DNA of 64,000 bases. Source: Parcubacteria group bacterium M6-OD1-1. Lineage in GTDB: Bacteria; Patescibacteriota; Minisyncoccia; GWC2-36-17; M10-OD1-4. The notes beneath the pieces were generated by a model, which was not told the DNA's origin, searched no databases, and was given only the letters and a program-made list of their open reading frames with translations. Positions within the stretch are counted from its first letter, which is position 1. Every line of letters begins with the position of its first letter. The stretch lies in the NCBI GenBank assembly GCA_003056085.1, contig LSNK01000004.1:28326-92325 (forward strand). Direction: 5' to 3'. A program made the position numbers and the translations under genes. Below, piece after piece: positions 1,057-58,398 of the stretch.

Positions 1057-1115
1057 ATTGAAATTAAAAAAAGTCTATAAAAGCGTTTTTATTATTAAAT
1101 AAATTTAAAAATATT

Positions 1116-9047: not shown

Positions 9048-9263
9048 ATGTTACAAGATCCTTCCGCTTTTACAATGGCTATCGGAACCATAGGTCCCGC
9101 TTTAGCAATTGGTTTAATAGGGGCCGCTGCTATGTTTGCTATAGCAAGAAATCCTCAAAGTTCCGACAAGATTCAGGTTGCTATGATAATTTCTATAGCT
9201 TTTGCTGAGGCAATAGCTATTTACGCATTAGTTATGGCTTTAATTCTTAAATTTGTATCTTAA
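9048..9263 (+). CDS. atpE: F0 ATP synthase subunit c (operon 1)
   Basis: 71-aa helical hairpin with an ARNPQ loop and a carboxylate in helix 2 ([11 protein letters not shown]). No Q/S/T Na+ signature, so likely H+-coupled. Confidence 0.85.
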
Positions 9264-9270
9264 ATAAAAA

Positions 9271-10095: not shown

Positions 10096-11533
10096 AAATA
10101 TAAAAGAAATAGGTCACATTGTATCTTATTTTTCCGGAGTTGCAAAAATTCAGGGGCTTCCTCATGTTTTTTTGAATGAAACTCTTTTAGATGAAAATGA
10201 CAATAAAGTTGCTATTGTTATAGGTTTTGACGAAAGATACGTTGAAGCTATATTTTTTAATGATGGCTTTGATGAGGAGAAACCATTGTTTAGAAGTCGT
10301 GAGCTATTTTCTATTCCGGTTTCTGATGATTACATAGGAAAGATTGTAGATGGATTTGGACAGCCGATAAATAAAAAAGATAAAATTTTTGGAGAGAGAG
10401 CAAGTATTTTTAAAAATTCTCCGGACATTATAGACAGAGAACCTGTGGTTGAACCGCTCTCTACCGGAATAAAAATAATTGATACCTCGCTTCCATTAGG
10501 GAAGGGTCAAAGAGAGTTAATCGTTGGAGATAGAAAAATAGGGAAAAGCTCCATAGCGCAAGATGTTGTTTTAAATCAAAAAGATAAAAATCCGGAGGTT
10601 TATTGTGTTTATGTTTTATGCGGCAAGAAAAAAAGCCAAATTGAAGATTTAGTGCATTTATTTAAAAAAAATTATGCATTTGCGTACTCTTGTGTTGTTG
10701 TTGCCTCAGCAGACGACACTTTTGCCAGCCAGTATTTAGCTCCTTTTGTCGGATGCGCCATAGGCGAGTATTTCCGTGATAAGGGAAAAGATGCGTTAGT
10801 TGTTTACGATGATCTTTCAAATCATGCTAAAGTTTTTAGAAATATATCTTTATTGCTTGAGCGCGCTCCGGGGAGAGAGGCTTACCCGGGAGATATATTT
10901 TCACTTCATGCCGGACTTCTTGAAAGAGCGGCAAAATTATCCAAAAAAAATGGAGGAGGGTCTTTGACAGCGCTTCCTATAATAGAAACTCAGGAAGGCG
11001 ATATAACATCTTTTATTCCAACAAATTTAATTTCCATAACAGACGGTCAAATATATTTGGATATTGGTTTGTATCAGAAAAGATTTATGCCGGCTATCAA
11101 TGTCGGGCTTTCCGTTTCCAGAGTTGGCTCACAAGCTCAACCCAAAATATTAAAAGGAGTAACCGAGGGAATAAGATTAGCTTTAGCTCAGCATAAAGAA
11201 TTACAGAAACTGACTCAATTGGAAACAGTTGTAAGTAAAGAAGCAAAAGATAAGATAAAAAGAGGGGATCTTATTTTGGAGCTTTTAAAACAAAACAAAC
11301 ATACAAATGTAAGGTGGGAAGAGCAGGTTATTTTATTTTATGTCGTGGAGTCCGGTTTTTTTGATGACACAGAAAAAGAGCATTGGTCTGAATTTGAAAA
11401 TCTGCTTCTTGAATTAATAAGAAATCATTATCAAAATGTTTTAGGAAAAATAAGCAGCGGTTTGTTTGATGATGATGTTAAAAAAAGCATAAAAGAAATT
11501 GTTGATGACTTCAAAAGGGAGTTTTTGCCTTAA
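10076..11533 (+). CDS. atpA: F1 ATP synthase alpha subunit (operon 1, divergent)
   Basis: P-loop GDRKIGKSS and ITDGQIYL. Lies between b and gamma. Confidence 0.85.
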   Translation: MPQKQDKNIKEIGHIVSYFSGVAKIQGLPHVFLNETLLDENDNKVAIVIGFDERYVEAIFFNDGFDEEKPLFRSRELFSIPVSDDYIGKIVDGFGQPINKKDKIFGERASIFKNSPDIIDREPVVEPLSTGIKIIDTSLPLGKGQRELIVGDRKIGKSSIAQDVVLNQKDKNPEVYCVYVLCGKKKSQIEDLVHLFKKNYAFAYSCVVVASADDTFASQYLAPFVGCAIGEYFRDKGKDALVVYDDLSNHAKVFRNISLLLERAPGREAYPGDIFSLHAGLLERAAKLSKKNGGGSLTALPIIETQEGDITSFIPTNLISITDGQIYLDIGLYQKRFMPAINVGLSVSRVGSQAQPKILKGVTEGIRLALAQHKELQKLTQLETVVSKEAKDKIKRGDLILELLKQNKHTNVRWEEQVILFYVVESGFFDDTEKEHWSEFENLLLELIRNHYQNVLGKISSGLFDDDVKKSIKEIVDDFKREFLP

Positions 11534-11572
11534 GATATTAGATTTTAGTTTTTTGGAATATAAAATTTATTT

Positions 11573-14055
<2,483 letters not shown>

Positions 14056-17297: not shown

Positions 17298-18389
17298 ATG
17301 ATGTTTAAGAATGTTTGGTTGGTTTTGTTTGTTTCTTTTTTAGCCGCTTGCGGTGGAGGGGAAACAACTGTTGGAACGGGTGATTCTTCGGTGGATATTT
17401 CACCGTTGAACGGAAAGGATGGCGTCGACGGTACAAGCTTTACTTCGCTTGTTGCCCCTATTGTCTGTAAGGATGGTCAGAATGGGTTTAAAGATAGTAC
17501 TGGCCCTGACAATAACCCAAAGAACGGGAAGCTGGATAGCGCTGAGGTAACAAGTAGTGTTTCTATTTGTCCTCCGCCTGCTCCGGTTGGTTGGGGTCAA
17601 AGACTCAGCTACTTGGAACCTTCTGAAGATCTTTGTGGAGGTGACCCACAGGGTGGGATGCTTTTTGAAGTCTGGAAGGAGGAAAATGGAGATGGTGAGC
17701 TTGACGGTAGTGAGGTTATTGCCAATCATGTCAAATGGTGTAATGGAGCACAAGGACCAAAAGGAGACACAGGTGCGCAAGGTCCAAAAGGAGATACAGG
17801 AGCACAAGGACCAAATGGGCTCATGCCACTCTTTCATATGCAAGAATTTTATGATTCTAAAGGACGGAGTTGTCATCGTTGGAGTGTTGGATTCGACACT
17901 GTTCGCAAGAATAACGAGCTGGACATGGGTACAAGTGAAGTAAAAGTATCTTCTACTTTTTGTGAAGACCCGTACACACCTACAGCAAACATTGGATTAA
18001 TCTTTGTTCACACTTTTGGTGTGATATCGAAAAATCCAAAACACTTCAGCTTTGTGGTGACAAAAACAAATCCAGTAAATGTGTTTCCTTTAGAAAATCC
18101 TGAAATATTTGATATTTCATATATCAAGATTACAGGTATTTTCAACAGGCCTCGTCCAGATGGACTTGTCACTGTTCATTTTCTAAAGTCGGAGCTACAG
18201 TGTTTGATCGGAGATCAAGACCCACGGCACATTGGCACAGATACATATTCAGTGCTTTGTCCTGCCTACGGTACGTATATCCCTGCCAATGAAAACGTAA
18301 AAGCTGTATGGCAGGTTGGACCAAGACGCAACTTTTTCGAGCTGAAGAAGATTGAAGTCTTTGGTGTTATTTCACCGGAAACAAACTAA
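17298..18389 (+). CDS. lipoprotein with collagen-like G-X-Y repeats
   Basis: Lipobox LAAC with SD AAGGAGA. Contains GAQGPKGDTGAQGPKGDTGAQGPNG (8 consecutive G-X-Y triplets). Confidence 0.55.
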   Translation: MMFKNVWLVLFVSFLAACGGGETTVGTGDSSVDISPLNGKDGVDGTSFTSLVAPIVCKDGQNGFKDSTGPDNNPKNGKLDSAEVTSSVSICPPPAPVGWGQRLSYLEPSEDLCGGDPQGGMLFEVWKEENGDGELDGSEVIANHVKWCNGAQGPKGDTGAQGPKGDTGAQGPNGLMPLFHMQEFYDSKGRSCHRWSVGFDTVRKNNELDMGTSEVKVSSTFCEDPYTPTANIGLIFVHTFGVISKNPKHFSFVVTKTNPVNVFPLENPEIFDISYIKITGIFNRPRPDGLVTVHFLKSELQCLIGDQDPRHIGTDTYSVLCPAYGTYIPANENVKAVWQVGPRRNFFELKKIEVFGVISPETN

Positions 18390-30700: not shown

Positions 30701-33231
30701 CTTTAGAGCGTGGGAAACCTGTACCGATTTATGGTGCTCGGACTTTTGATACAACTGCTCCAACAACGCCAATAATAATAAAAGCTAAAGCGATAAGTGG
30801 TTTCCAGGCCGATCTTTCTTGGACTAAGTCAGTGGATCCCGATAGTGGAATTTCAGGTTATAATATTTATCGCAATGGACTTAATATTGGTTTTACTTCA
30901 CAGACAAATTATCGTGATAGTGGGTTGCAAGAGTTTGCTAATTATAGATATCAAGTCTCTGCTATAAATAGATCTGGACTCGAAGGGTCTAAGAGCATCG
31001 TAGTAAATACCACAACATCAGGAGATATAACTCCTCCTAGAATTGAATCAGTAAATGCTGCTACGGATTTAAATAAAGTGACGGTTGTGTTTAGTGAGCA
31101 ATTAAATTCAATTGATGCTCAGACAGTAAGTAATTATAGTATTAATAATAATATTCAAATTATTGGAGCGGTACTGGAGAATAACCAAACCACTGTAACT
31201 CTAACAACGACAAGTTTGAGCAAGGGGATAAATTATACGCTTACAGTTAACAATATTACTGATAGTTCTGTTGCACGAAATATGATTATTCCCAACAGTC
31301 AAGTATATTTTACTTATATTGCAACCCTATTAATTAGTGATATATTTCCTGCAACTTATCAGAGGGATAGTTTAGTTGAAAAAAAAGAAGTCTACATTGA
31401 TAGAACCTATACCTATACGAACGTGCCATCAAGCTTTAAAAATTTTAATTATCTTCGTACTGCTAATAATGATAAGTCAGCGACTGGTGGTAATTTTCTA
31501 TCATTCACTGTAAATCAACCAGTTACCGTGTATGTAGCATATGATGTACGAATCTTAACGAGACCTTCATGGTTATCTTCTTGGGTAAGTGTCGGTGCTC
31601 AATTAAAGACTACAGATACCACTCTACGATTATATAGAGCGGACTTTTCAGCTGGCACAGTAACTCTTGGAGGGAATGAGGGTGGTGGAGGTAGTATGTA
31701 TACGGTTTTGGTGTCTCCTTACACAGGAGAAAGTGTCATCTCAACTCCACAACCTACTCCGACACCAGCCGACACCACTCCACCAACCATAACCACCCCA
31801 ACCATCACAACCACAATAAACTCAGCAACGATAACCTTCACAACAAACGAAACAGCAACAGCATACATAAACTACGGTCTGTCTTCAGCATACTCAAGCC
31901 AAACAAACACACATCAAGGCGCCACTCACACATTCACACTATCTAACCTCTCAGACAACACAACATATAATTATCGAACAACAGCAGCAGACCAAGCAAA
32001 CAATACAACCCAATCAATAAACAGAACATTCACGACAAAACAAGCAATACAACAAGACACAACGCCACCATCACAAACAACAAATCTATCGTCATCAAAC
32101 ATCACACAAACATCTGTTGACCTAACATGGACAGCATCAGGAGATAATAATATGCAAGGACAATCATCAAGCTACGACATAAGATATTCAGCAACACCGC
32201 TAACAAACACAAACTACACACAAGCAACTCAAGCAACAGGAGAACCAACACCAAAACAAGCAGGACAAACAGAAACAGCATATATTGCAGTCGGACTCCA
32301 ACCAAACACAACATACTACTTTGCTCTAAAAACAACAGATGAAGCAAACAACACATCACCACTTTCAAACATCATCACAATAACAACATTAGACACACAA
32401 ACACAACAAGAAGAAACACAATCAACAGGTAGTGGTTCATCAGGTGGAGGTACACAACACTCATCATCAGGAAGCACACAAACATCATCAGGCGGAGGCG
32501 GAGGAGGAATATTCACCGACACAACCCCTCCAAAACAAGCATCCAACACAACAACAGAGTCAGCAGACAGACAGATAACTCTAAAATGGAACAACCCCAA
32601 AGACAACGACTTTGCACGTATAATCATAATCAGAAAAGAAGGTTCAAAACCAACATCACAAACAGACGGTACTACAATATACGAAGGAACAAACGAAGAA
32701 TACACAGACATCAACCTAAACAACAACAAAAAATACTACTACGCAATATATACCTACGATAAAAAACCAAACTACTCATCACCAATATACATAGAAGCAC
32801 AACCAAAAGAAGGAAAGACACAAATACAAACAAAATCAACCCCCATCAAAGAAGGAGATCTAATCCGAGGCCCGGACGGCATCAAAGTATACATAATCAA
32901 CCAATACGGATACAAACGCCATATATTCAACCCCGTAGTCTTTGAAATGTACGGACATCTTAAATGGGAAGACATCAAAGAAGTCTCCCAACAAACATTA
33001 GACTCCTTTACCACCTCAGACTTTTATCAAGCAGAGAACGATTACAGAGTATTCTCCCTAAAAGAGATAAACGAAAAAGAAGGATTCGCCCAAAAACGAT
33101 GGATGAACCTTCCCGCACAACGATTTCTCTCACTCGGATACAACTGGAAACAAGTATTCACCATAAACGAAAAAGAAAGAGATTATTACCAAGAAGGAAC
33201 TCCTTTAACTGAGCAGGAGTTGGAGAGGTAG
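27781..33231 (+). CDS. giant secreted surface protein: LamG-like + FN3 repeats + right-handed beta-helix + Thr/Gly-rich linkers
   Basis: Signal peptide. LamG_3-type N-domain (GLVGYWTFDEGSGTTASDSSGNGNTGTL...ALSFDG). Multiple FN3-like units (TPPTTPTNLQA...GYRVYRNG; ISGYNIYRNG). Parallel beta-helix/pectate-lyase-like region (NPIILRGQSQ...). T-rich and GGGGGG linkers. Confidence 0.8.
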   Translation: MPKIKNVFILASLLAVFILIPTGILNAQTAPTNGLVGYWTFDEGSGTTASDSSGNGNTGTLTNGPTWTSGQIGGALSFDGVNDVVEIDSVSSLKPSTVITVSAWVKLKVDATAFNAYIIAFDNINYAYHLSWTDAAPDRFIWRVRNTNGVKEASYKINPKGVWVNVVGTFDGTTQKIYTDGVERDSIAVSGNIDYTFASQLNIGAQRKSNIWDGTIDDVRIYNRALSTTEIADIYNAGIGVGTVTTYQCSDSIDNDSDGLTDYPNDPGCTSTTDNDEYNAVSDTTPPTTPTNLQATTNSSSQISLTWSASTDNTATAGYRVYRNGTQITTTTNTSYTDNSLSAGTLYTYTVSAYDAAGNVSSQSTSVSAATNITISTKFNINDTIEVSTRDGSSLNVRGTANGILLGQQLNGRRGIVIGGPTVAGGLIWWNINFNNAPDGWVAEGYITASLISGNSITIGTLESDPPTIKNLGVSLPIISGDNNYNAQAFVSYRKQGVSAWNEGLPLLRVRPDKLSTDTQLFTVVNQFAGSIFNLEPDTSYEFRVRVVDSDGVNGNSSQIITMHTRPYPKANPLVARIVNVSTMTELRSAVASAKPGDVITLANNTYNGSITINNSGTADNPIILRGQSQVGVIIDASGALGGIDIAASHVYVENLTVTSSDYGIRMPSDAIDVVVRFTRLTNVNKGIKAKNYSHRNFYICDNVLEGKSVWPDTSKATWDMEGIVITGSGHVVCNNTLSGFGDSIGFSRYTNIPNLANDFYGNEVLWGGDDGIELDEGQRNIRAYRNRILNTASGISMQPVWGGPTYIFQNIFYNQKNAPYKLNNAPSGFYIFNNTAVRVGWAWKQYSNRIMNFQFFNNLTVGTDNGVDMSSVVTLGEIDYNGWYPDGQFRFGTRWNSFSDLQARSPFETNGRLLTSSIFQNDIPILTETAPDKNTFRAPVNLTLSSVSNAVDAGRLLPNINNDYIGSGPDLGALERGKPVPIYGARTFDTTAPTTPIIIKAKAISGFQADLSWTKSVDPDSGISGYNIYRNGLNIGFTSQTNYRDSGLQEFANYRYQVSAINRSGLEGSKSIVVNTTTSGDITPPRIESVNAATDLNKVTVVFSEQLNSIDAQTVSNYSINNNIQIIGAVLENNQTTVTLTTTSLSKGINYTLTVNNITDSSVARNMIIPNSQVYFTYIATLLISDIFPATYQRDSLVEKKEVYIDRTYTYTNVPSSFKNFNYLRTANNDKSATGGNFLSFTVNQPVTVYVAYDVRILTRPSWLSSWVSVGAQLKTTDTTLRLYRADFSAGTVTLGGNEGGGGSMYTVLVSPYTGESVISTPQPTPTPADTTPPTITTPTITTTINSATITFTTNETATAYINYGLSSAYSSQTNTHQGATHTFTLSNLSDNTTYNYRTTAADQANNTTQSINRTFTTKQAIQQDTTPPSQTTNLSSSNITQTSVDLTWTASGDNNMQGQSSSYDIRYSATPLTNTNYTQATQATGEPTPKQAGQTETAYIAVGLQPNTTYYFALKTTDEANNTSPLSNIITITTLDTQTQQEETQSTGSGSSGGGTQHSSSGSTQTSSGGGGGGIFTDTTPPKQASNTTTESADRQITLKWNNPKDNDFARIIIIRKEGSKPTSQTDGTTIYEGTNEEYTDINLNNNKKYYYAIYTYDKKPNYSSPIYIEAQPKEGKTQIQTKSTPIKEGDLIRGPDGIKVYIINQYGYKRHIFNPVVFEMYGHLKWEDIKEVSQQTLDSFTTSDFYQAENDYRVFSLKEINEKEGFAQKRWMNLPAQRFLSLGYNWKQVFTINEKERDYYQEGTPLTEQELER

Positions 33232-45858: not shown

Positions 45859-47004
45859 ATGATAAAAATAATTCACACAGGAGATTTGCATCTTGGGGCT
45901 AAGTTCAGCTCTTTTGGCAAGAAGTCCGGCAGTCAAAGGCGGGCTCTTTTGGATTCTTTTAAAAAAGTGATTGATGAAGCCATTTTAAAAAATGCTCATT
46001 TGGTTTTGATAGCGGGAGATCTTTTTGATTCTAATTTTCCTGCCTATGAAACTGTCAATTTGGTAAAAAGTGAACTGAAAAAATTAGACGAAGCAAAAAT
46101 ATTTACTGCAATTTTGCCGGGGACGCACGACTGCCTTTCTGTTGATTCAATCTACAAAAGAGAGAACTTTGCAGAAGGTCTTTCTCATATTTATATTTTT
46201 GATAATGAAAATATAACATCTAAGTTTTACCCTGAGCTTGATCTTGTTTTGTATGCTCAGGCAAATACTGCCAATAAATCTTTAAAAAGTCCTTTGGATT
46301 TTCTAAAGTCCTCTGATGAGGAGCACAAAAACGCAAAATACAAAATCGCCATGGCACATGGGTCTGTTCAGATAGAGGGTAAGTCCGCAAAAGATGATTG
46401 GCCTATAACTTTAGGGGAAATATCAAAGTCTGATATGCAGTACATTGCGTTGGGTCATTGGCATGGAGCTCAGGATTTTTCTTTTGGTTCAACAAAAGCT
46501 TGGTATTGCGGTTCCCCGGAGATTACCTACAAAGAAGGGAAAGGCGGACTGGGGCAAGGATATGCCATTGAAGTTGATATAACGGACAATGTGGAAGTTA
46601 AGCCTTTTTTGATTACTGATAAAAAAATTGAAGAGCTCAGTTTAGACATTGGTATGTTTTCTGATATTGGAGCAGTTTATAAAGAAATAGAAAACAAGGC
46701 CGGGGAAAATATTATTTTAATTTTAAATATTTCAGGAATTGCGAATCCGGATATGTTTTTGGATAAAGAAAAACTTAAAGAGGATCTTTCAGATAAATTT
46801 TTCAGCGTTACAATAAAAGATAATTCTTCACCCGGAGTGGACAATATTTTAGAAAGAGAGTATCCGGAAGATATGGTTTTGGGGCAGTTTATAAGACTGA
46901 TGCGGGACAAGATAAATTCAGCCCAAAATGAAGACGAAAAAAGGATTACAGAAGAAGCTTTGCAAATAGGAGTAGCTGAGCTGGAAGGAAAAGAAGTAAT
47001 TTAA
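45859..47004 (+). CDS. SbcD/Mre11-family metallophosphoesterase nuclease
   Basis: Calcineurin-like motifs I-V: GDLHLG, GDLFD, GTHD, AHGS, GHWHG. Confidence 0.75.
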   Translation: MIKIIHTGDLHLGAKFSSFGKKSGSQRRALLDSFKKVIDEAILKNAHLVLIAGDLFDSNFPAYETVNLVKSELKKLDEAKIFTAILPGTHDCLSVDSIYKRENFAEGLSHIYIFDNENITSKFYPELDLVLYAQANTANKSLKSPLDFLKSSDEEHKNAKYKIAMAHGSVQIEGKSAKDDWPITLGEISKSDMQYIALGHWHGAQDFSFGSTKAWYCGSPEITYKEGKGGLGQGYAIEVDITDNVEVKPFLITDKKIEELSLDIGMFSDIGAVYKEIENKAGENIILILNISGIANPDMFLDKEKLKEDLSDKFFSVTIKDNSSPGVDNILEREYPEDMVLGQFIRLMRDKINSAQNEDEKRITEEALQIGVAELEGKEVI

Positions 47005-47176
47005 TAAGTATAAAGTAAAAAGTTTAAAGTAAACGACAATGAATAATACGCAATATAAAAAATGGAAAAGGTTTTAATTTAGAGGTGATAGAATGAATTA
47101 TTTAATTTAAAATTTATTTTTTAATATTATATATTTCAATTTTTAACTTTTTACTTTCGACTTTTAACCTACCAAT

Positions 47177-49255
47177 ATGTATTTAAAATCAATAACAGTT
47201 AAAAACTTTAGAAAATTCAAAGATTTTTCAATTAATTTTCCTTCGGATATTACGGTTATTAAAGGACCGAATGAAAAAGGAAAATCAACCATACTTTCTG
47301 CCATTTTAGCAGGATTTTTCTATGATCCAAAAAAATCAAACAGAGAGATAGATGCTTTAAAATCGTGGCATTCAGACCAATTATATGAAATGAGGCTTGA
47401 GATTGAAAATGACGGCAATGAGATTGTTCTTGAGAAAAATTTCAATGAAAAAGAGATGCTTCTTGAAAATAAAACAACAGGCGAGAAGATAAAAAATTTC
47501 AAAGATATATCCGATTATTTATACAAAATAGGTTCGTTAAGGTCTCTTTCCTTATTTGAGAATACGGCTTGTGTTAAACATGACGCTCTTTCTTTGATAA
47601 CTCAAGGAAAACGGGAGATATCCCAGGCTTTGCAAAGCCTACTTACTTCGTCTTCTGAAAATGTTAGTCCTGATAAAATTATAAAAAAAATTAATGATCT
47701 TTTAACGGAAATACAAAAAGGTTTAAAACAGCCATCAAAAACTCCCGGAGTTTTAAAGGAGATAGAAAGCAATATACTTGAGCTTGAAGACAAAAAGTCA
47801 AAACTTAAAGCTGAGTTGGATGATGTTTCAAAAAAATCAGATTATTTAGGTTCTATTCAAACAGAATACAACAATCTCAAAGAAAAGTTTGATATTAAAT
47901 TTCGCCAGTATGAAATGAATAAGAAATATTTTCAAACAATAAAAGAGCTGGAAAGTTTAAGCTCTCAATTTAAAAAAATAGAAAGTGATATTGAAGTTCT
48001 TGAAGAATTGGAAAAAAATAAAGAATATATTTTATTTCAGCTCAAAAAAATGAGCTTTCTTGAAGGATTTGACATAAGAGAGTTTTACAAAAAGGTAAAT
48101 AATCTTAAAGACAAAGAAGCAAAACTTCAATACTTAAAAAAATATTATAAAAATACAAAAGAAACAGAATCAAAAAAGGGTAAAAACAGCTTTTTTCTCA
48201 TGGGTCTTTTTGTGGCGTTTTTTATCGTCGGGTTTTTAGGATTTTTAGAACCTTGGCTATTCTCATCTTTTGCTATTTCAATTTTATTTTTTATTTTAAA
48301 TTTTGTTTTCAAGAAAAAAAGCTCAGAAAGCAAAAAAATAAAAACAGTTAAAGACATAAAAATTTTAGAAAAAGAAATTGATTTTTTAAGTGATGAAATA
48401 AATTTAATATTTGAAAAAAGCCATATAAAAAATGACAAAGAACTCATTGATAAAATAAAAGAATATAATGAATTTTGCAAAGAGTTGGAAAAAACAGAAA
48501 GTAAGGAAGAGGGGATACTGAGAGGATTTAGCTTTTCTGATGTTAAAAAAGAAAAAAGCAGTATTTTGAAAAATATAGGAATTTTAGAAGAAAAAATTTC
48601 GGAGGAGCAAAAGGTAAATGTTCCAACTCCGCAAGAACAGCGTCTCTTGGAGGTTGATTTGGAAAAATATGACAAAAAATTGGATGATTTAAAAAAAGAA
48701 ATACTGCAGGTTTCTGCTGTGTCAAATCAATATGCTATAGATAAAGAGAATATAATAAAGTTGGAGGAGGACTTGGAGTTTGAAAAAGAAAAGAAATTGA
48801 ACTTTGAGAAAAAAGTTAAAGTTTTAGAGTCTTTAGCTGAGAATTTAAAAGAAGCTCAGTCAAGAATACTGTCAAAGTCCAAGTCTCATATTGAAGATTA
48901 TATGAAAAAATATCTTATAACCATAACAGATGGAAGGTATGATAATATGAAGGTGAACGATGATCTTTCTTTTAATGTTTGGTCTGAAGAAAAAAAAGAT
49001 ATGGTTGTTCCGGAAGACCATCTTTCGCAGGGAACAGTAGACCAATTTTATCTTGTAGCGAGGTTTGCTATTTTGGACGTTTTAAATAAGGGAAATAAAT
49101 CTTTGGTTTTACTTGATGATCCTTTTCACTCTTTTGATTCAAAAAGACGAGAAAAAACCAAGCAAGTTTTAAATGACTTAACAGATAGATTTCAAATAGT
49201 GCTTTTTTCTCACTCCTCTGATTATGATGATTGGGGAGAAGTGGTTGAGATATAA
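47177..49255 (+). CDS. SbcC/Rad50-like ABC ATPase with central transmembrane hairpin
   Basis: N-terminal Walker A GPNEKGKST. Long coiled coils. Two hydrophobic TM helices at the coiled-coil apex (FFLMGLFVAFFIVGFLGFL, WLFSSFAISILFFILNFVF) in place of a CxxC zinc hook. Signature-like LSQGT, and Walker B/D-loop LVLLDDPFHSFD. Confidence 0.6.
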   Translation: MYLKSITVKNFRKFKDFSINFPSDITVIKGPNEKGKSTILSAILAGFFYDPKKSNREIDALKSWHSDQLYEMRLEIENDGNEIVLEKNFNEKEMLLENKTTGEKIKNFKDISDYLYKIGSLRSLSLFENTACVKHDALSLITQGKREISQALQSLLTSSSENVSPDKIIKKINDLLTEIQKGLKQPSKTPGVLKEIESNILELEDKKSKLKAELDDVSKKSDYLGSIQTEYNNLKEKFDIKFRQYEMNKKYFQTIKELESLSSQFKKIESDIEVLEELEKNKEYILFQLKKMSFLEGFDIREFYKKVNNLKDKEAKLQYLKKYYKNTKETESKKGKNSFFLMGLFVAFFIVGFLGFLEPWLFSSFAISILFFILNFVFKKKSSESKKIKTVKDIKILEKEIDFLSDEINLIFEKSHIKNDKELIDKIKEYNEFCKELEKTESKEEGILRGFSFSDVKKEKSSILKNIGILEEKISEEQKVNVPTPQEQRLLEVDLEKYDKKLDDLKKEILQVSAVSNQYAIDKENIIKLEEDLEFEKEKKLNFEKKVKVLESLAENLKEAQSRILSKSKSHIEDYMKKYLITITDGRYDNMKVNDDLSFNVWSEEKKDMVVPEDHLSQGTVDQFYLVARFAILDVLNKGNKSLVLLDDPFHSFDSKRREKTKQVLNDLTDRFQIVLFSHSSDYDDWGEVVEI

Positions 49256-49799: not shown

Positions 49800-50036
49800 C
49801 TTTTGCAAGAAAATACCTTAGTATAAGGATTAATTAAATATATAAACCGTAGACAAGGGGCTGTTCTCAGTGAGAGCATTAAGACCTCTCGAGGTGGAAT
49901 AAAGCTATTTTTAGCTTTTTATTTCCCATTTGAGTCTGCGATCTTAAAAAGGTCGTTTTTTATTTATTTTTTGAAATTTTTAGTTTATGGGAGTCTTAGT
50001 TTTTTCTAAGGATCTAATAAATTAAAAATTAAAAGT
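49800..50036 (+). promoter_or_regulatory. rplJ 5' leader (probable L10/L12 autoregulatory region)
   Basis: About 230 nt non-coding upstream of rplJ with hairpin potential. Assignment is by position. Confidence 0.35.
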
Positions 50037-51159: not shown

Positions 51160-51906
51160 ATGGACGAAATACAAATAGCGCTTTCCGCTGAAACAATTAC
51201 AGAGTTTTTAGGAGTACCTATAACAAATACACTCATTATGAGTTGGATTGTAGTCGGGTTGCTTTTGTTTTTGGGTCTTTTTGTCGGGAAAAACTTAAAA
51301 ATGATTCCCGGAAGAATTCAGGTGATGTTTGAATCCTTGTTTGTTTATGTTTTGGAATATATGGAGGAGACTTTGGAAAGCAAGAAATTGGCAAGAGTTT
51401 TCTTTCCTCTCATTTTAACCATTTTTTTGTTTGTGTTTATTGCAAATCTTATTGAATTTACTCCGGGGATAGGAAGTATAGGGTTTTTTGAAGTCCATGG
51501 TGGGAAAGAGGAGTTTATCCCGCTTTTACGTTCTATGAACACCGACCTTAATGTTACTTTGGCGCTTGCTATCATTTCATTTTTAGTTGTTGAGGTTACG
51601 GGAGTTCTTACAATTGGTTTCTTGAAATATTTTTCAAAATTTGTTAACTTTAAATCTGTTATTGGATTTTCAATAGGCATAATAGAGTTGTTTTCCGAGA
51701 TGGTTAGATTGGTTGCTTTCTCATTTCGTCTTTTTGGAAATATATTTGCGGGTGAAGTGTTGATATTAGTAGTTATATTCTTTGTTCCTTATATACTCCC
51801 TGTGCCGTTAATGCTCTTTGAAGTATTTGTAGGGTTTATACAAGCGGCAATTTTTTCTTTGCTTACTTTATTTTTTATAAAGATAGCGATAACAGAACCG
51901 CATTAA
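51160..51906 (+). CDS. atpB: F0 ATP synthase subunit a (operon 2)
   Basis: RLFGNIFAGE motif. Confidence 0.85.
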   Translation: MDEIQIALSAETITEFLGVPITNTLIMSWIVVGLLLFLGLFVGKNLKMIPGRIQVMFESLFVYVLEYMEETLESKKLARVFFPLILTIFLFVFIANLIEFTPGIGSIGFFEVHGGKEEFIPLLRSMNTDLNVTLALAIISFLVVEVTGVLTIGFLKYFSKFVNFKSVIGFSIGIIELFSEMVRLVAFSFRLFGNIFAGEVLILVVIFFVPYILPVPLMLFEVFVGFIQAAIFSLLTLFFIKIAITEPH

Positions 51907-52020
51907 GTTAGAAAAGTTTAAAGTTATTAAAGTCGAAAATTTAAAAGATAGTAATTAATTTCTTAGTAATCATTTTTTAGTTTAAGTAAGTTGATAAGCT
52001 TAGTTAAGCTGAAAAATTAA

Positions 52021-52254
<234 letters not shown>

Positions 52255-52299
52255 AACTTTAAAAATTGGTATATCTTACGACTCGGCTGAAGCCTCTTT

Positions 52300-52479
52300 G
52301 TATTGCGTTTTATAACCAATCGCTTCACCTGAAGGTATTGCGTTTATAACCAATCGCTTCACCTGAAGGTATTGCGTTTTATAACCAATCGCTTCGCTCT
52401 TGGATAAAACGGGAACGCTCTTGGACAAAACGGGAACGCTCTTGGATAAAACGGGAACGCTCTTGGATAAACAGGGAGC
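52300..52479. repeat. compound tandem direct repeat: ~35-nt unit x2.8, then 21-nt unit x4
   Basis: GTATTGCGTTTTATAACCAATCGCTTCACCTGAAG repeated (52300-52395), then GCTCTTGGATAAAACGGGAAC x4 (52396-52479; copy 2 has T to C, copy 4 is degenerate). Lies in the atpE-atpF intergenic region. Confidence 0.75.
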
Positions 52480-52568
52480 TGCGATCTATGCTTAATTTTT
52501 AAAGTTTTTAGGGGGGTGTTTAAATATAAAAATTCTTAACTCTTAATTTATTATTTTTAGCCAAAGTT

Positions 52569-53030
52569 ATGGATGAAATATTAAAAGTATTTGGAATAAA
52601 TTGGAAACTCGTTTTGATTCAAACGGTTAATTTTGGTTTGCTTTTGATTCTTTTGCAGATATTTTTGTATAAACCTGTAATGAAAATGATAGATAAAAGA
52701 GCAAAAAAAATAGAAAAAGGAGTGAAGGATTCTGAAGAGGCGGAAATAAAACTTAACAGTGCAGAGGAGGAGAGAAAAGCTATATTGTCCGTTGCAACAA
52801 AAAAAGCGGAAAATATTATAGATTCATCAAGAAAAAAAGCGGAGGATGTAAAGTCTGAAATATTAAAGGACGCGGAAGATAAAGGCAATGAAATTCTTAA
52901 TGAAACAAAAAAGAAGGCGGAGGAAAAAATAAAAAAGGCGGTTGAAAGCAGTAGGGCGGAAATTGCGAAAATAGCGGTTTTAACAGCAGAAAATATTTTA
53001 AGAGAAAAAGAAAGAAACAGTACGCAGTAG
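52569..53030 (+). CDS. atpF: F0 ATP synthase subunit b (operon 2)
   Basis: N-terminal TM helix followed by a charged coiled coil. Confidence 0.75.
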   Translation: MDEILKVFGINWKLVLIQTVNFGLLLILLQIFLYKPVMKMIDKRAKKIEKGVKDSEEAEIKLNSAEEERKAILSVATKKAENIIDSSRKKAEDVKSEILKDAEDKGNEILNETKKKAEEKIKKAVESSRAEIAKIAVLTAENILREKERNSTQ

Positions 53031-53062
53031 TTTTTTTAATTTTTGTGTGCTCAATTTAAGTT

Positions 53063-53455
53063 ATGTTATCTGAAAAATATGCTCAAGCTTTATATTATAT
53101 TGCAAAGGATAAGTCCGAAAAAGAACAGGAAGGATTTTTTGATAACTTTATAAAACTTTTAAAAAGAAATGGACATCTTAGTCTTTTACCTAAAATATTA
53201 AAAAATTTAAATGAAATTTCTTTAAAAGAACATAAGAAAGATAAAATAGATTTTATTGTTTCAGATGAAAAATTTAAAGATAAATACAAAGAAAAGATTA
53301 AAGATTATAAAAAATACCTCAATCTTAAGCAGGAGGTTCAAACAAAAGTGGATGATGCGATAGTTGGAGGGTTTATTATACGCACAAAAGATACAATAAT
53401 AGACGGAAGTTACAGGAGAGGTCTTGTAAATTTATATAATAAATTTATTAAATAG
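53063..53455 (+). CDS. atpH: F1 ATP synthase delta subunit (short)
   Basis: C-terminal VGGFIIRTKDTIIDGSYRRGL OSCP motif. Confidence 0.7.
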   Translation: MLSEKYAQALYYIAKDKSEKEQEGFFDNFIKLLKRNGHLSLLPKILKNLNEISLKEHKKDKIDFIVSDEKFKDKYKEKIKDYKKYLNLKQEVQTKVDDAIVGGFIIRTKDTIIDGSYRRGLVNLYNKFIK

Positions 53456-53513
53456 ATCTACTGAGTAATTTTATGAAGATATATTACACAGTGAGTTTAA
53501 TAACTAATAAAAA

Positions 53514-55085
53514 ATGAGTGATTTTATTATAGAGAAGTTAAAAAAAGAGATTGAAAAATTTTCACCAAAAACAGAGGTGGAAAGAATTGGTACTGTGACG
53601 AAAGTTGCAGATGGAATTTGTGAAATTGATGGGCTTGATGGAGCTTTAATGTCAGAGATGATTGTTTTTTCCGATCAAGAAAGCAAAACTCTTTCGGAAA
53701 CCATTTCAAATCCGGATGTTATAACAGGACTTATACTTAATTTAGAAGAAGATTCCATAAAAGCTGTTATTTTGGGCGACACTCAAAAAATTAAGGAAGG
53801 GATGCTTGTAAAAAGCACAGGACAAATTCTTTCTGTTTCCGTCTCTGAAAAATTAATTGGCAGAGTTGTGAATGCTCTTTCAGAGCCGATTGATGATGAG
53901 GGGAGTATTGACGCTTCAGATTCCAGAAAAATAGAAAGAACCGCCTATGGAGTTATGGATCGTTCTCCTGTTGATACACCTTTGCATACGGGTATTAAGG
54001 CCATTGATTCTATGATTCCTATCGGTCGCGGACAAAGAGAGCTTATTATCGGTGATCGTTATACCGGTAAAACAACTATAGCTGTTGATACTATTTTAAA
54101 TCAAAAAAATGAGCCGGAAGGTGAGAGACCAATTTGCATATATGTTGCCATTGGGCAAAAAGAATCAAAAACAGCAAGAATAGTTTATGATCTAAAAAAA
54201 CGCGAAGCTATGAAATATACAATAGTTGTTTCTGCGTCGTCTTCCGAACCGGCCTCTTTGCAGTTTCTTGCTCCGTTTACTGGCGTTGCGATAGCGGAAT
54301 ATTTTATGGAAAAAGGAAAAGATGTTCTTATTATTTACGACGACCTTTCAAAGCATGCTGTTGCTTACAGACAAATGTCACTTCTTTTGAGGCGTCCTCC
54401 CGGAAGAGAAGCCTATCCCGGAGATATTTTTTATCTTCACTCAAGACTTCTTGAAAGATCGGCAAAATTAAACAAGAAATTAAAAGGCGGGTCTATAACT
54501 GCATTGCCTATTATTGAAACTCAAGAAGGAGATGTTTCCGCATACATCCCGACAAATGTTATATCTATAACAGACGGTCAGATATTTTTAAATTCAGATT
54601 TGTTTAATAAGGGGTTGAAGCCCGCAATTGACGCCGGTATTTCAGTTTCTCGTGTGGGTTCTGCTGCGCAAACAAAAGCGGTTAAAAAAGTTGCCGGCAA
54701 GATAAAACTTCAATTGGCTCAGTTTCGAGAACTGGAGGCATTTATGCAATTTAGTCAGGACTTGGATCCGGACACAAAAGCCAGCATTGAAAAGGGAAGA
54801 AGACTTTCAGAAATATTAAAACAAAAAAACAATAATCCATTGGGATTTGAAAAGCAAGTGGTTTCTATTTATTCTGCAATATCAGGAATGTTTGATGACG
54901 CGGAGGTTGACGATGTTGTAAAAATTGAAGGAAAACTTCTTTGCTATATTGGAGATCAGAAAGATGAGATATTTAAAAGCATTAAGAAGGAAAAAGACTT
55001 AACAAAGGAAACGGAAGAAAAATTGAAAGAGGCGCTTAAAAGCTTCAAAGAAACACACAGCGAGTTGTTTACTTTAAAAAAATAA
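53514..55085 (+). CDS. atpA: F1 ATP synthase alpha subunit (operon 2)
   Basis: P-loop GDRYTGKTT and ITDGQIFL. Confidence 0.9.
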   Translation: MSDFIIEKLKKEIEKFSPKTEVERIGTVTKVADGICEIDGLDGALMSEMIVFSDQESKTLSETISNPDVITGLILNLEEDSIKAVILGDTQKIKEGMLVKSTGQILSVSVSEKLIGRVVNALSEPIDDEGSIDASDSRKIERTAYGVMDRSPVDTPLHTGIKAIDSMIPIGRGQRELIIGDRYTGKTTIAVDTILNQKNEPEGERPICIYVAIGQKESKTARIVYDLKKREAMKYTIVVSASSSEPASLQFLAPFTGVAIAEYFMEKGKDVLIIYDDLSKHAVAYRQMSLLLRRPPGREAYPGDIFYLHSRLLERSAKLNKKLKGGSITALPIIETQEGDVSAYIPTNVISITDGQIFLNSDLFNKGLKPAIDAGISVSRVGSAAQTKAVKKVAGKIKLQLAQFRELEAFMQFSQDLDPDTKASIEKGRRLSEILKQKNNNPLGFEKQVVSIYSAISGMFDDAEVDDVVKIEGKLLCYIGDQKDEIFKSIKKEKDLTKETEEKLKEALKSFKETHSELFTLKK

Positions 55086-55109
55086 CTTTTAACTTTTAAT
55101 TAAGCAAAA

Positions 55110-56042
55110 ATGTCTTTAAAGGCGATTAAAAATAAAATAAAATCTATTAACAAGACAAGACAGGTGACTAAAGCAATGGAGTCTGTCGCTGCTGTTAAGA
55201 TGAGAAAAAGTCAAAAAACAGCATTTGATACAAGGCCTTACGCCATGCATGCTTTTGGAATATTAAAAAGAATAAGCGGGAGCATTGACGGCAAAAGCCA
55301 CTTTTTGATGCTGGAAAGGGAAGTAAAAAAAACATGTATATTTATAATCACAAGTGATAAAGGGCTCGCAGGAAGTTTAAACAGCGCAGTTATTAAAAAA
55401 GTTGTTCGGGAAATGGATAAGGACGGGCTTGATAAAGAAAATACAAGTTTTATATGTATAGGCAAAAAGGGTTATGAATATTTTTTAAAAAGGGGTTTTA
55501 AAATAGAAAAATATTATGAAAAGCTCGGAGAAAATGTTTCGGTAGAGCTTTTAAAAGAAGTTTCAGACCTTTTAGTCAGTCTTTATGAAAATAAAAAATA
55601 TGATAAATTTAAAATTTTTTATACAAATTTTATTTCAACAGCAGACCAAAAACCCGTAGCAAGAACAATTCTTCCCATAAAATATGATGAAGTCAAAAGA
55701 ATTATTAAGCGTATTTTGCCAAAAACGGGGAGATACTCTGAGTTTAAAAATACCATTGACATAGATCAAAGTGATGATGTGAGAGCGTATTTATTTGAGC
55801 CAAGCGCGAAAGATATTTTAAAAGAGCTCTTGCCGTTTTTATTGAATATTCAACTTTATTATTCACTTCTTGAATCTCAGGCGTCAGAGCATTCTGCAAG
55901 AATGGTTTCAATGAAAAATGCTTCAGATAAGGCAGATGAATTATCAAAAGATTTGAAGTTGGTGTTTAACAAAGCAAGACAAGCTTCCATAACAAGTGAA
56001 ATATCAGAAATTACCGGAGGCATTGAAGCATTATCAAATTAG
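55110..56042 (+). CDS. atpG: F1 ATP synthase gamma subunit (operon 2)
   Basis: MSLKAIKNKIKSINKTRQVTKAMESVAAVKMRK N-terminus typical of gamma. Confidence 0.8.
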   Translation: MSLKAIKNKIKSINKTRQVTKAMESVAAVKMRKSQKTAFDTRPYAMHAFGILKRISGSIDGKSHFLMLEREVKKTCIFIITSDKGLAGSLNSAVIKKVVREMDKDGLDKENTSFICIGKKGYEYFLKRGFKIEKYYEKLGENVSVELLKEVSDLLVSLYENKKYDKFKIFYTNFISTADQKPVARTILPIKYDEVKRIIKRILPKTGRYSEFKNTIDIDQSDDVRAYLFEPSAKDILKELLPFLLNIQLYYSLLESQASEHSARMVSMKNASDKADELSKDLKLVFNKARQASITSEISEITGGIEALSN

Positions 56043-56063
56043 TATAAGATTTTAACCATTTAA

Positions 56064-57461
<1,398 letters not shown>

Positions 57462-57616
57462 AAAATAAAAAATTTGAAAGTAAAAAATACTAAGCAGCAA
57501 GTAACAATAATCAAGAAACAAACAAATTTCAAGATACAATAACCAAAACGACGATGTATCTGTAATCCGTTTCTTATAATTTTTGTTTTACTCGCGACTT
57601 TATTCTTGTTTAAATT

Positions 57617-57853
57617 ATGTTTTTTTTAACAATAGCAAAAATAAATGAAACTTTGTTTCAGGGAATGGTAAGGTCAGTAAACTGTCCCGGAGTTGAGGGT
57701 GAAATGACCGTACTTCCAAACCATATTCCTTTGGCGACAATTTTAAAAGCTGGAGAGATAAGAATAAGAGTTGATGAGGACAAAGAGGAAAAGCTCAAAA
57801 TAGAAAAGGGAATACTTGAAATAAGCAAAAAAGAAGTTGTTATTTTGCTTTAG
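57617..57853 (+). CDS. atpC: F1 ATP synthase epsilon subunit (short, operon 2)
   Basis: 78 aa, beta-sandwich domain only. Confidence 0.65.
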   Translation: MFFLTIAKINETLFQGMVRSVNCPGVEGEMTVLPNHIPLATILKAGEIRIRVDEDKEEKLKIEKGILEISKKEVVILL

Positions 57854-57885
57854 ATATTTAAAATTCAAAGTTGCAAAATAAATAA

Positions 57886-57912
57886 AAAAAGCGGCCATTG
57901 TGGCCGCTTTTT
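57886..57912. terminator. bidirectional terminator
   Basis: AAAAAGCGGCCA-TTG-TGGCCGCTTTTT. Confidence 0.65.
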
Positions 57913-57933
57913 GATTTTACGTTTTTACGCGAT

Positions 57934-58398
57934 TTATTTTTCGGAGTATACAACCTCAATATTCCAGTCTTCATTTACAAAAAGGCCAAACACAGGAATC
58001 CCCAATTGCCATTTTGAAAGTACTTTTCTGCAAAATTCCTTGATTTCTTCAATGTGTTCTTCTTTTGAGATTGGATTGCCGGCACAATCATGATGTCCGC
58101 ATATCACAATGCCGCAAGAGAGGTGTTTTTCTATAGAAAATAAAGCTTTTTTTTGGACAGTTTCTTCATGTAGTCCTGAACCGTCGTTTGTCAAATTGTC
58201 CATCCCCGGCTCGGTTATTGTGTCTACATATTTAACGTTGAATTGTTCCTTGACCCATTTTGTAACAGGCTCTTGGGTCCGGCCGTCTATGCAGTTTAGT
58301 GCGGTTGCAAATGTATCATCTTTATGCATTTTTTTTGCTCCATTCTTAATTTTAAAAAGCACTTTTGATATTATAGAATACTTTTCCTTAAAAGTCAA
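57934..58398 (-). CDS. beta-class carbonic anhydrase-like protein (minimal)
   Basis: NCIDGR and GHHDCAG resemble the beta-CA Zn-ligand motifs CxDxR and HxxCG. Only 154 aa. Confidence 0.45.
   Translation of the reverse strand: MTFKEKYSIISKVLFKIKNGAKKMHKDDTFATALNCIDGRTQEPVTKWVKEQFNVKYVDTITEPGMDNLTNDGSGLHEETVQKKALFSIEKHLSCGIVICGHHDCAGNPISKEEHIEEIKEFCRKVLSKWQLGIPVFGLFVNEDWNIEVVYSEK

Follow-up and report, generated by a model that had tools for sequence, protein, structure and literature searches.

Two adjacent tandem repeats that separate atpE from atpF in a Parcubacteria genome are best read as the two arms of a nested copy of a hairpin element that has not been described before and that occurs across phyla. 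We regard the locus as a recent insertion of repeat DNA and not as a regulatory array within a housekeeping operon. The hairpin itself is notable: its tip is the same in different phyla, its stem covaries, it is absent from Rfam 15 and the literature that we searched does not mention it. In Patescibacteria, the intergenic sites at which it stands belong to the operons with the highest expression (tRNA, rRNA, r-protein, groEL, dnaK, pilin and atp).

The repeat array in the atpE–atpF spacer

The window (the whole 64-kb stretch of DNA that was analyzed) has two F-type atp operons. As the preliminary description had it, the array lies inside the second of them, between atpE and atpF, and its neighbors are atpB, atpE, atpF and atpH (Table 1). 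The c-subunit assignment is supported by a match to PF00137 in the AtpE-identical protein of contigs L001–L003. The spacer covers positions 52255–52568 (314 nt) and contains unit A (34/35 nt, 2.8 copies, 52300–52395), followed with no gap by unit B (21 nt, four copies, 52396–52479). These are the units and copy numbers reported earlier from the sequence, and both Tandem Repeats Finder and a pattern search agree with them. Tandem Repeats Finder assigned to unit A a period of 34, 2.8 copies and a score of 185 (52300–52395), and to unit B a period of 21, 3.7 copies and a score of 147 (52395–52471), with 96% matches in both cases; the two are by far the strongest arrays in the window. The pattern search located the B copies at 52396, 52417, 52438 and 52459, with 0, 1, 0 and 3 mismatches, respectively, where the number expected by chance was 0.00. 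Neither unit was found elsewhere in the 64-kb window. The repeats are indeed near-perfect and richer in GC than their surroundings (0.41–0.46 in the array versus 0.20–0.35 in the flanks). The copies stand head to tail without spacers, so that the earlier statement that this is not a CRISPR array also holds.

Three features of the array go beyond that description: unit B approximates the reverse complement of part of unit A, the last B copy belongs to a different subtype, and a 15-nt inverted repeat without mismatches brackets the whole array. The atpE stop codon extends over two bases at the start of this outer repeat. The longest inverted repeat obtained in 300 dinucleotide shuffles was 13 nt, and none of the 300 reached 14 nt.

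Table 1. Positions of the array, its components and neighboring genes in the window, and of the terminal inverted repeats in two Brevundimonas-type contigs (numbered on those contigs)
Feature	Position	Strand	Remarks
atpE (c subunit), upstream gene	52027..52254	+	75-aa ORF; stop codon 52252-52254
Left arm of perfect 15-nt inverted repeat (AAAACTTTAAAAATT)	52253..52267	.	encloses the insertion
5′ leader of the outermost element (ACGACTCGGCTGAAGCCTCTTT, small GGC-UGAA-GCC hairpin)	52277..52299	+	from flank comparison
A1: 5′ half-hairpin (GTATTGCGTTTTAT-AA-CCAATCGCTTC) plus 8-nt leader of the next inner copy (ACCTGAAG)	52300..52334	+	
A2: like A1, minus 1 nt in the T run	52335..52368	+	
A3: innermost 5′ half-hairpin, 27 nt, no leader after it	52369..52395	+	
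Sole complete element: leader, 5′ arm, 2-nt bulge, 19-nt tip (52385-52403), 3′ arm, GGGAAC tail	52361..52419	+	covariance model R1
B1-B3: 3′ half-hairpins, inner (T/A) subtype (GCTC-TTGG-AYAAAACG-GGAAC)	52396..52458	+	
B4: 3′ half, outer (C/G) subtype (GCTC-TTGG-ATAAACAG-GGAGC)	52459..52479	+	
Right arm of 15-nt inverted repeat (AATTTTTAAAGTTTT)	52494..52508	.	
atpF (b subunit), downstream gene	52569..53030	+	153-aa ORF; PF00430
L099 terminal inverted repeat arms	512-599 / 972-1059		
L109 terminal inverted repeat arms	2566-2651 / 3022-3110		

The two repeat units are halves of one hairpin

Unit A carries CGTTTTAT-AA-CCAA and unit B carries TTGG-ATAAAACG, which are inverted-repeat pairs. Since the two halves are complementary, the junction between A3 and B1 makes up a complete stem-loop, CGTTTTAT AA CCAA [TCGCTTCGCTC] TTGG ATAAAACG. 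In this single imperfect hairpin, an element of about 56 nt, unit A supplies the 5′ half and unit B the 3′ half. R1, a covariance model built from the family described below, scored the A3/B1 junction at 75.2 bits (E = 1.3e-20), and this was the only significant match in the window.

The preliminary description had likened the 21-nt copies to iterons or to a binding array for a transcription factor or an RNA-binding protein. This part of it did not stand: the units are not autonomous but are halves of a hairpin, and only the A3/B1 junction scores (75 bits). A direct-repeat array of the iteron type, bound by a DNA- or RNA-binding protein, would fit the regular spacing of the four 21-nt repeats, but we consider it highly improbable, given that the half-sites belong to a hairpin conserved as a whole, that single-copy forms are the rule elsewhere, that no replication initiator or regulator gene lies within 6 kb, and that relatives lack the array. 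In annotation, the array should be taken neither for an iteron nor for a small gene or a CRISPR-like array.

Coding readings were rejected on both strands. The repeated peptide LLDKTGT, which unit B could encode, stands in a frame closed by a TAA five codons upstream, and the plus strand has no ORF of 40 aa or more. A seemingly conserved minus-strand peptide (VPVLSKSEAIGYK) owes its apparent synonymous changes to stem covariation; its frame is closed in the Brevundimonas class, and of 120 DUF559 homologs only 2 have the peptide in frame. The LLDKTGT motif does account for part of an exact search with unit B over one genome per species. Four of the eight matches were kdpB genes of unrelated bacteria, because the 21-mer encodes this conserved phosphorylation motif of P-type ATPases. 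The other four came from Saccharibacteria, Parcubacteria and Minisyncoccia MAGs, each with one copy of the A/B junction beside tRNA genes.

The hairpin defines a conserved family

In the window, the 19-nt tip of the hairpin, CCAATCGCTYCGCTCTTGG, is present a single time. When metagenomes were scanned with the corresponding 20-mer (CCAATCGCTYCGCTCTTGGA), at least 120 loci were recovered, nearly all of them single-copy. The 19-nt tip is identical in at least 120 metagenome contigs ranging from Patescibacteria to Brevundimonas, and the stem beneath it covaries. It had been considered earlier that the units might turn out to be a generic repeat scattered over the genome. This is borne out for the whole hairpin, which is dispersed in many genomes, and not for the window, where it occurs a single time.

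Among the matches listed, the helix flanking the tip exists in 80 distinct versions. Over these, helix positions comprise 565 Watson–Crick pairs, 57 wobble-type pairs (G-T or A-C on the plus strand) and 28 mismatches, and 73 of the 80 versions have a 2–3-nt bulge on the 5′ side. In an alignment of 30 sequences the hairpin has 14 pairs, interrupted by a bulge and an internal loop; 99% of cells are paired and five pairs show compensatory changes. None of 500 shuffles reached the observed covariation score, and in slid controls of the same 30 sequences the paired fraction dropped to 32–50%. In the Patescibacteria class, an upstream A[T]TGC is accompanied by a downstream GGGA[A]C, and an upstream A[C]TGC by a downstream GGGA[G]C.

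Rfam 15 covariance models, searched against the window and 24 loci, gave no match on the element even at E values up to 1. This also removes SRP RNA, RNase P, tmRNA, 6S RNA or a ribozyme as identities for the copies beside tRNA-Ser. Literature searches by sequence string and by topic returned nothing relevant on the hairpin. An integron attC site was rejected as well, by eye, because the R′/R″ consensus is unmatched, and type III toxin–antitoxin RNA repeats (ToxI-like) were dismissed because the downstream gene is atpF and not a toxin endoribonuclease. The segment CGCTCTTGGACAA resembles TGCTCTTTAACAA, which we take to be the rrn/lambda boxA. Nevertheless, a boxA or NusB–NusE site is not a suitable identity: the orientation in rRNA and tRNA operons is the opposite one, the bases of this segment are paired, and such a site would not account for the 5′ half of the tip, which is conserved too.

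A nested array built from two subtypes

The window has unequal numbers of A and B copies and lacks the outer 5′ half, so the nesting was read from the sister contig L002 and not from the window alone. In L002, the second element lies inside the tip loop of the first, and the array of four A and four B copies is nested and consists of two subtypes. The first A copy of L002 is of the C/G subtype (GTACTGC-TGTTTAT; ACTGC, CTGTTTAT) and pairs at eight of eight positions, with the correct outer Y-R pair, only with the last B copy (ATAAACA-GGGAGC; ATAAACAG). The T/A subtype (ATTGC, CGTTTTAT) is found in the three inner A halves, which pair at eight or seven of eight positions only with the three inner B halves. 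The subtypes differ exactly at the positions that covary across the family, which indicates that the inner copies are not duplicates of the outer one. Moreover, when the L002 spacer was folded, its minimum-free-energy structure had the halves paired in the same nested manner.

The borders of the units point the same way. Each inner leader (ACCTRAAG) together with its A and B halves matches the extent of single-copy elements, for example those in L013 and L075 (CCTAAAGGAYTGCG...GGGARC), and the leader of the outermost element in the window (52277..52299) is homologous to single-copy leaders in L031, L064 and L101. The break between A and B falls in the middle of the loop of the conserved tip (TCGCTTC^GCTC). 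Two unrelated loci have small foreign hairpins at this position of a tip that is otherwise normal: in L094 the tip is split after TTC by a hairpin of 17–20 nt, and in L119 after TCC by 19 nt. In the window, B4 has no matching 5′ half, whereas its partner (GTACTGCTGTTTAT...) is present in L002 and L003; the window has lost the outer 5′ half, leaving B4 orphaned.

Copy number varies between strains, as the preliminary description had proposed to check. We counted three A and four B copies in the window, four and four in L002, and at least two A and three B in L004, although these contigs are assemblies of repeat-rich sequence and the exact numbers may be wrong. All eight same-species contigs from other assemblies have an end inside the atpE–atpF spacer, and the array accounts for such breaks in metagenome assemblies of this organism. 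These ends might suggest that the array is itself an assembly artefact of collapsed or expanded repeats. We give this almost no credence, because the units and their order agree between independent assemblies (two NCBI metagenome assemblies, one NCBI genome assembly and three Logan runs), with 3–4 copies.

A more serious alternative is that a single hairpin was inserted and that slippage then expanded its 5′ and 3′ halves separately into two minisatellites, with the tip never having been entered. The independent variation of A and B numbers between strains (3/4, 4/4, and at least two A with three B), the near identity of the inner copies to one another and the absence of a donor copy from the window would all agree with such a history. 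It leaves three observations unexplained, however. Slippage does not account for the different, self-consistent subtype of the outermost pair in L002 (ACTGC/CTGTTTAT with ATAAACAG/GGGAGC), for unit borders that coincide with the natural ends of the element and the middle of its tip loop, or for foreign hairpins at the same loop position in two unrelated loci. We regard separate expansion as unlikely and favor nesting by insertion into the tip.

The insertion is lineage-specific

The closest named AtpF belongs to Candidatus Azambacteria, with 64% identity, and assigns the organism to the Patescibacteria. Relatives L144, L145 and L146, whose AtpF proteins are 64, 66 and 44% identical, have atpE–atpF spacers of only 3, 23 and 4 nt, respectively. 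In the closer relative L143 (83% AtpF identity) the spacer is 88 nt long and consists of unrelated AT-rich sequence. The element was not found in the atpE–atpF spacer of any of these four relatives, and the array is therefore a lineage-specific insertion and not a conserved feature of operon design. The insertion is recent and strain-variable. The fallback offered earlier, a recently expanded minisatellite or the scar of an insertion, proved essentially right, as relatives lack the array and its copy number differs between strains. No target-site duplication was found at the insertion: the flanks read CAT on the left and TAG on the right, without a direct repeat. A second empty/filled pair is provided by the region 3′ of purK in Brevundimonas: L147 and L148 have the empty site, L057 the filled one.

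Dispersal of the element and nuclease neighbors

Elsewhere, the element is found in r-protein, groEL, dnaK, pilin, tRNA and rRNA operons, at intergenic positions. About 20 extra copies were present in 466 kb of flanking sequence from other genomes, or about one per 20 kb. Clusters or inverted doublets occur in L025, L055, L077 and L094, a 60-nt tandem array in L048, and in L133 the element lies inside the 3′ end of an ORF. All-against-all clustering of 668 neighboring ORFs revealed no recurrent linked gene and no recurrent RAYT candidate. Nucleases encoded near the element include GIY-YIG enzymes at four loci and an HNH enzyme at one; in the window there is no DUF559, GIY-YIG or HNH nuclease gene, nor is any transposase linked to the element there.

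A high-GC class of the motif occurs in Brevundimonas, as judged from PurK beside L057, which is 87–88% identical to that of named Brevundimonas species. Here the tip is part of terminal inverted repeats of about 88 nt. Between them lies a 117-codon DUF559 gene (Vsr-like PD-(D/E)xK), the only gene of the resulting 550-bp cassette (Table 1). Six of the seven DUF559 genes in motif-selected loci are within 63 nt of the motif, which corresponds to four independent loci. L057 represents a decayed cassette at a site where B. naejangsanensis has a terminator-like hairpin alone. A search of a plasmid collection with the Brevundimonas element gave no match. DUF559 as an obligate partner was rejected, because four Patescibacteria DUF559 loci chosen independently of the motif lack the tip and have a different hairpin in their inverted repeats. 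The link to DUF559 is real in Brevundimonas and not general; it offers a lead on the enzyme that is not proven. For DUF559, a very common domain of unknown function, the link to cassettes flanked by terminal inverted repeats suggests a role that can be put to the test.

Folding, strand preference and possible roles of the hairpin

In the window, the atp mRNA carries the plus-type strand of the element. Folding the array as RNA, a check suggested earlier, showed that the plus strand is 2.8 sd more stable than its shuffles and is closed by a 15-bp helix; on either strand, it is the 15-nt inverted repeat that closes the minimum-free-energy fold. We infer that in the atp mRNA the array folds as a long branched stem closed by this helix and is tolerated there, and that such folding may simply insulate it. 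At most, it could plausibly have a modest effect on the stability of the atpB–atpE segment relative to atpF. No terminator-like site (a GC-rich stem with a U tract) was detected on the plus strand of positions 51800–52700, and a scan of the spacer region for promoter-like sites was negative for both strands.

In E. coli, REP hairpins that lie within operons serve as protection against 3′ exonucleases, as processing sites or as barriers. By the same token, the array could be a selected cis-acting RNA, in which a stem-loop after atpE keeps 3′ exonucleases off atpB–atpE, or serves for processing or as a partial barrier, with a higher output of subunit c relative to b as the outcome. The stability of the plus-strand fold with its closing helix, the suggestive position after the highest-copy subunit, and the occurrence of the element in other highly expressed operons are in keeping with such a role. 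On the other hand, close and distant relatives manage without the element, with spacers of 3–23 nt, and it is thus not needed for atp expression. Terminator-like and promoter-like signals are absent and the copy number is unstable. Furthermore, the non-Watson–Crick positions in the array and the tip variants favor folding of the minus strand, which is antisense here. Taken together, selection for a cis-acting RNA appears distinctly unlikely, even more so than separate expansion of the two halves.

A preference for the minus strand is suggested by several features. On this strand the tip reads CCAA-GA-GC-GNA-GC-GA-TTGG, and the sole variable base of the 20-mer among the matches listed is the middle of the triloop. 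Natural variants keep the GNA loop: the left arm of L099 has GCA, and the right arm of L109 has an extra C-G pair with a GGA loop. The variants in L031, L075, L094 and L048 give a G-T wobble on the minus strand and a C-A mismatch on the plus strand, and likewise the T-to-C change in B2 of the window is a wobble on the minus strand and a mismatch on the plus strand. The wobble counts in helix 1, 34 versus 23, clearly favor neither strand. As for transcription, the minus-type strand is transcribed in 20 of 22 tRNA-adjacent cases, upstream of the 23S rRNA gene in L063, and right after the stop codons of some genes. The opposite orientation is also common, and relative to protein genes the element is found either way round. 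There is one class in which the start codon of a groEL, dnaK, rplK, rpsN, rpmA, rplP, rpsL or pilin gene lies within the 3′ arm. A sigma-70 promoter for the adjacent tRNA was rejected: the hexamers are poor and not conserved, and the promoter scan found none. We conclude that structure matters, that the tighter constraint probably lies on the minus-type strand, and that the element may act at the level of either DNA or RNA.

GCGAAGC and GCGGAGC are known as 'extraordinarily stable mini-hairpins' and are found at the phage G4 origin, at RSF1010 ssiA and in the N4 virion-RNAP promoters (PMC13037366). The element might by analogy be a signal in single-stranded DNA or antisense RNA, with the mini-hairpin acting as a primase, origin or promoter-type hairpin or as a small antisense RNA. 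Such a signal would be compatible with a minus-strand tip that, among the matches listed, varies only at the middle of the triloop, with variants (L031, L075, L048, L099 and L109) that keep the GNA loop or wobble on the minus strand only, and with the prevailing transcription of that strand beside tRNA genes. Yet neither strand has a promoter-like site, the element stands in both orientations relative to protein genes, and a recent, variable insertion confined to one lineage is hardly a required replication signal. We consider this role very improbable.

Proposed origin of the array

The reading that we favor, with moderate confidence, is a nested palindrome: a hairpin-in-hairpin array of a selfish-like dispersed element, produced by insertion into the tip loop combined with slippage. 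An element of about 56 nt would first have landed in an originally tiny atpE–atpF junction in a Patescibacteria lineage resembling Azambacteria. A second element of a different subtype would then have entered the single-stranded tip loop between TYC and GCTC (TYC^GCTC), a point that on the complementary strand lies just 5′ of the GNA triloop. Further copies may have accumulated at the tip by repeated self-insertion or by local re-copying. Under such a process 5′ halves pile up on the left as unit A and 3′ halves on the right as unit B. Finally, slippage or unequal recombination between near-identical halves could have changed the numbers of A and B independently. Independent changes of this kind would result in 3A/4B in the window, 4A/4B in L002 and three B in L004, and in the breaks seen in short-read assemblies. 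Tip insertion as the generating mechanism would operate on DNA, in an extruded or single-stranded hairpin.

Several points speak against this scheme. The 64-kb window holds no second copy of the element, so that a donor of the inner subtype is not seen. There is no linked transposase or nuclease gene there, no evident target-site duplication, and the A and B numbers of the window are unequal. The three inner copies could stem from local duplication rather than from repeated insertion.

The element itself is probably a small, palindromic piece of selfish DNA belonging to a dispersed low-copy family. Its selfish-like character is suggested by presence/absence polymorphism at two loci, by its occurrence in either orientation, by its intergenic sites in highly expressed operons, by the clusters, inverted doublets and tandem array at other loci and by the shared insertion point. 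Against this, the copy number is low, and conservation of the tip goes far beyond what selfish repeats usually show, which hints at a function. More speculatively, and as a tentative possibility, the tip hairpin (CCAATCGCTYCGCTCTTGG) could be the working module of an unrecognized type of mobile DNA whose targets are hairpin loops in single-stranded form; repeated entry would build 'Russian-doll' palindromes. Candidate loop targets may include its own tip, other palindromes and the anticodon loops of tRNA-Ser. Such DNA may be handled by small free-standing nucleases, as the DUF559 cassette of Brevundimonas would exemplify, and the invariance of the tip from Patescibacteria to Alphaproteobacteria may reflect recognition by a conserved enzyme or loop–loop pairing between sense and antisense copies. 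If tip insertion is true, palindromes grow from inside, and this offers a handle on how small genomes gain structured spacers.

Comparison with known systems

With its tandem units of about 35 nt in a genome of the Patescibacteria, the array calls to mind TIGR and CRISPR arrays. TIGR arrays consist of two alternating repeats of 8–12 nt and variable spacers of 9 nt, and lie beside a Tas gene with a Nop domain (PMC12045711). The array described here has no variable spacers, its units are 96% identical throughout and its flanks are atp genes. With spacers absent, both types of array are ruled out.

The GCGNAGC mini-hairpins of Hirao resemble the element in that its minus-strand tip contains GC-GAA-GC or GC-GGA-GC flanked by GA/GA (PMC13037366). 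They differ in being initiation signals of phages and plasmids with defined partner enzymes, whereas the element is chromosomal, intergenic and dispersed.

With MITEs, Correia elements and Rickettsia palindromic elements, it has in common that it is a small non-coding insertion with an inverted repeat (15 nt) around it, that its presence among relatives is patchy and that transcription units tolerate it. Unlike these palindromic insertion elements, it lacks a target-site duplication, and its conserved part is the center (the tip) and not the termini. The outer inverted repeats differ between the window, L031 and L087, and may thus be local features rather than termini of the element.

Single-strand transposition of the IS200/IS605 type, including PATEs, offers a parallel to the proposed mechanism, in which an element defined by a hairpin would enter single-stranded DNA at a short specific sequence without duplication. 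In the window as in L094 and L119, the trinucleotide that precedes the insertion on the plus strand is rich in pyrimidines (TTC or TCC). Against the parallel, no TnpA gene was found, there is one central hairpin in place of two subterminal ones, and the loci have no conserved flanking tetranucleotide in common.

As to form and location, the element compares well with the REP/BIME/REPIN sequences. Like them, it is a short imperfect palindrome (20–40-nt class) that is extragenic, often sits in operons or between convergent genes, occurs in either orientation and at times in clusters or inverted doublets, and shows presence/absence polymorphism. It differs in having no GTAG/CGTC tag, its ends being G(G/C)AYTGC...GGGARC, and in being present in few copies rather than hundreds, with one locus in 64 kb. 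Further differences are its tip, which is identical across phyla where REPs are species-specific, and the arrangement of its copies, which lie not side by side but in each other's loop.

Genomic contexts of the hairpin element

The element, a small hairpin of about 56 nt whose 5′ and 3′ halves correspond to units A and B of the atpE–atpF array, is found next to tRNA genes in several Patescibacteria. There, a tRNA-Ser 5′ half that ends at the anticodon (CUUG) is followed first by the element and then by an intact tRNA-Ser gene. In two of these loci, L018 and L026, a remnant of the tRNA-Ser 3′ part survives as well, from GAAAA onward. More small GC-rich hairpins are inserted in the D-loop of the pseudo-halves. 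The half genes together with the element look like the outcome of an anticodon-loop insertion at ^GAA.

In one class of the element, the 3′ arm of the stem includes the start codon of a gene, often as ATGGCA. The genes concerned are groEL, dnaK, rplK, rpsN, rpmA, rplP, rpsL and a type IV pilin gene. Because the start codon lies within the stem, the hairpin would be expected to occlude the initiation of translation in genes with very high expression.

Like the array in the window, single-copy elements of other genomes (L031 and L087/L093/L028) are surrounded by an outer inverted repeat, but each locus has a different repeat sequence (AAAAATCCAAACCG in L031, ATTCCCAG in L087 and AAAACTTTAAAAATT in the window). 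Two readings fit: a preference of the element for loops of pre-existing hairpins, or a closing helix that is created or selected after insertion. Head-to-tail copies occur elsewhere as well: an AT-rich contig (L048) carries 3.2 copies of a 60-nt unit that consists of a CCGCCAGAGGCGG hairpin and the tip motif (the invariant 19-nt tip at the centre of the element) or a variant of this motif (CCAATCACTTCATTCTTGG).

Similarity searches with unit B returned exact 21-nt matches in kdpB of Flavobacterium, Myroides, one proteobacterium and one actinomycete. These matches arise because unit B, in the frame starting at 52397, translates to LLDKTGT, the phosphorylation motif of P-type ATPases. Homology of unit B to kdpB was rejected, and the matches are a trap for similarity searches.

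Other features of the window

The window, a 64-kb stretch of a small Patescibacteria genome, holds two F-type ATP synthase gene sets. The first encodes the alpha, beta and gamma subunits together with a b-like protein. The second, a full set, begins directly after rplJ–rplL. Upstream of rplJ, a ribosomal protein L10 leader (RF00557) scores 42.5 bits, slightly below the gathering score of 44. In-frame tandem repeats of 27 nt and 24 nt occur inside long ORFs; the 27-nt one (GGAGCACAAGGACCAAAAGGAGACACA) looks like a collagen-like Gly-X-Y repeat.

Positions of the features described (L-numbers denote individual contig loci from other genomes or metagenomes)
Feature	Location
Unit B	window 52396-52479
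Outer inverted repeat around the array	window 52253-52508
ATP synthase set, first	window 8055-13835
ATP synthase set, second	window 51160-57853
L10 leader	window 49829-49971 (+)
27-nt in-frame repeat	window 17745-17815
24-nt in-frame repeat	window 32437-32499
Adjoining atpC and Pro_CA_2 genes	window 57617-58398
SbcD-like and SbcC/Rad50-like pair	window 45859-49255 (+)
60-nt unit array	L048:2040-2226
tRNA-Ser half genes	L018, L026, L009, L014, L016, L113, L119
Start codon in stem	L047, L132, L080, L035, L115, L094, L090, L042/L043
DUF559 cassette/motif	L099:512-1059; L109:2566-3110; L133:159-622; L076; L129; L062
DUF559 with a different hairpin	L159, L166
atpC–DUF559–Pro_CA_2	L151-L158
GIY-YIG/HNH neighbors	L024, L046, L108 (≤300 nt from the motif); L014

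Nuclease genes near the element

Brevundimonas genomes contain compact cassettes of ~550 bp, in which one DUF559 (PF04480) nuclease gene is located between 88-nt terminal inverted repeats that contain the 19-nt tip hairpin. Among loci selected for carrying the tip motif, six of the seven DUF559 genes touch it. DUF559 genes of Patescibacteria likewise lie between inverted repeats, but these carry a different hairpin (CCTCCTTT..AAAGGAGG). In Buchananbacteria, a DUF559 gene is present between the atpC and Pro_CA_2 genes; these two genes also adjoin in the window, where the DUF559 gene is absent.

Small free-standing GIY-YIG nuclease ORFs (PF01541) of 84–98 aa and one HNH ORF adjoin the element in tRNA-rich regions. 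In the window itself, a gene pair encoding SbcD-like (Metallophos) and SbcC/Rad50-like (AAA_23/SMC_N) proteins is located 3 kb upstream of the array. Enzymes of the SbcCD type cut DNA hairpins at the loop.
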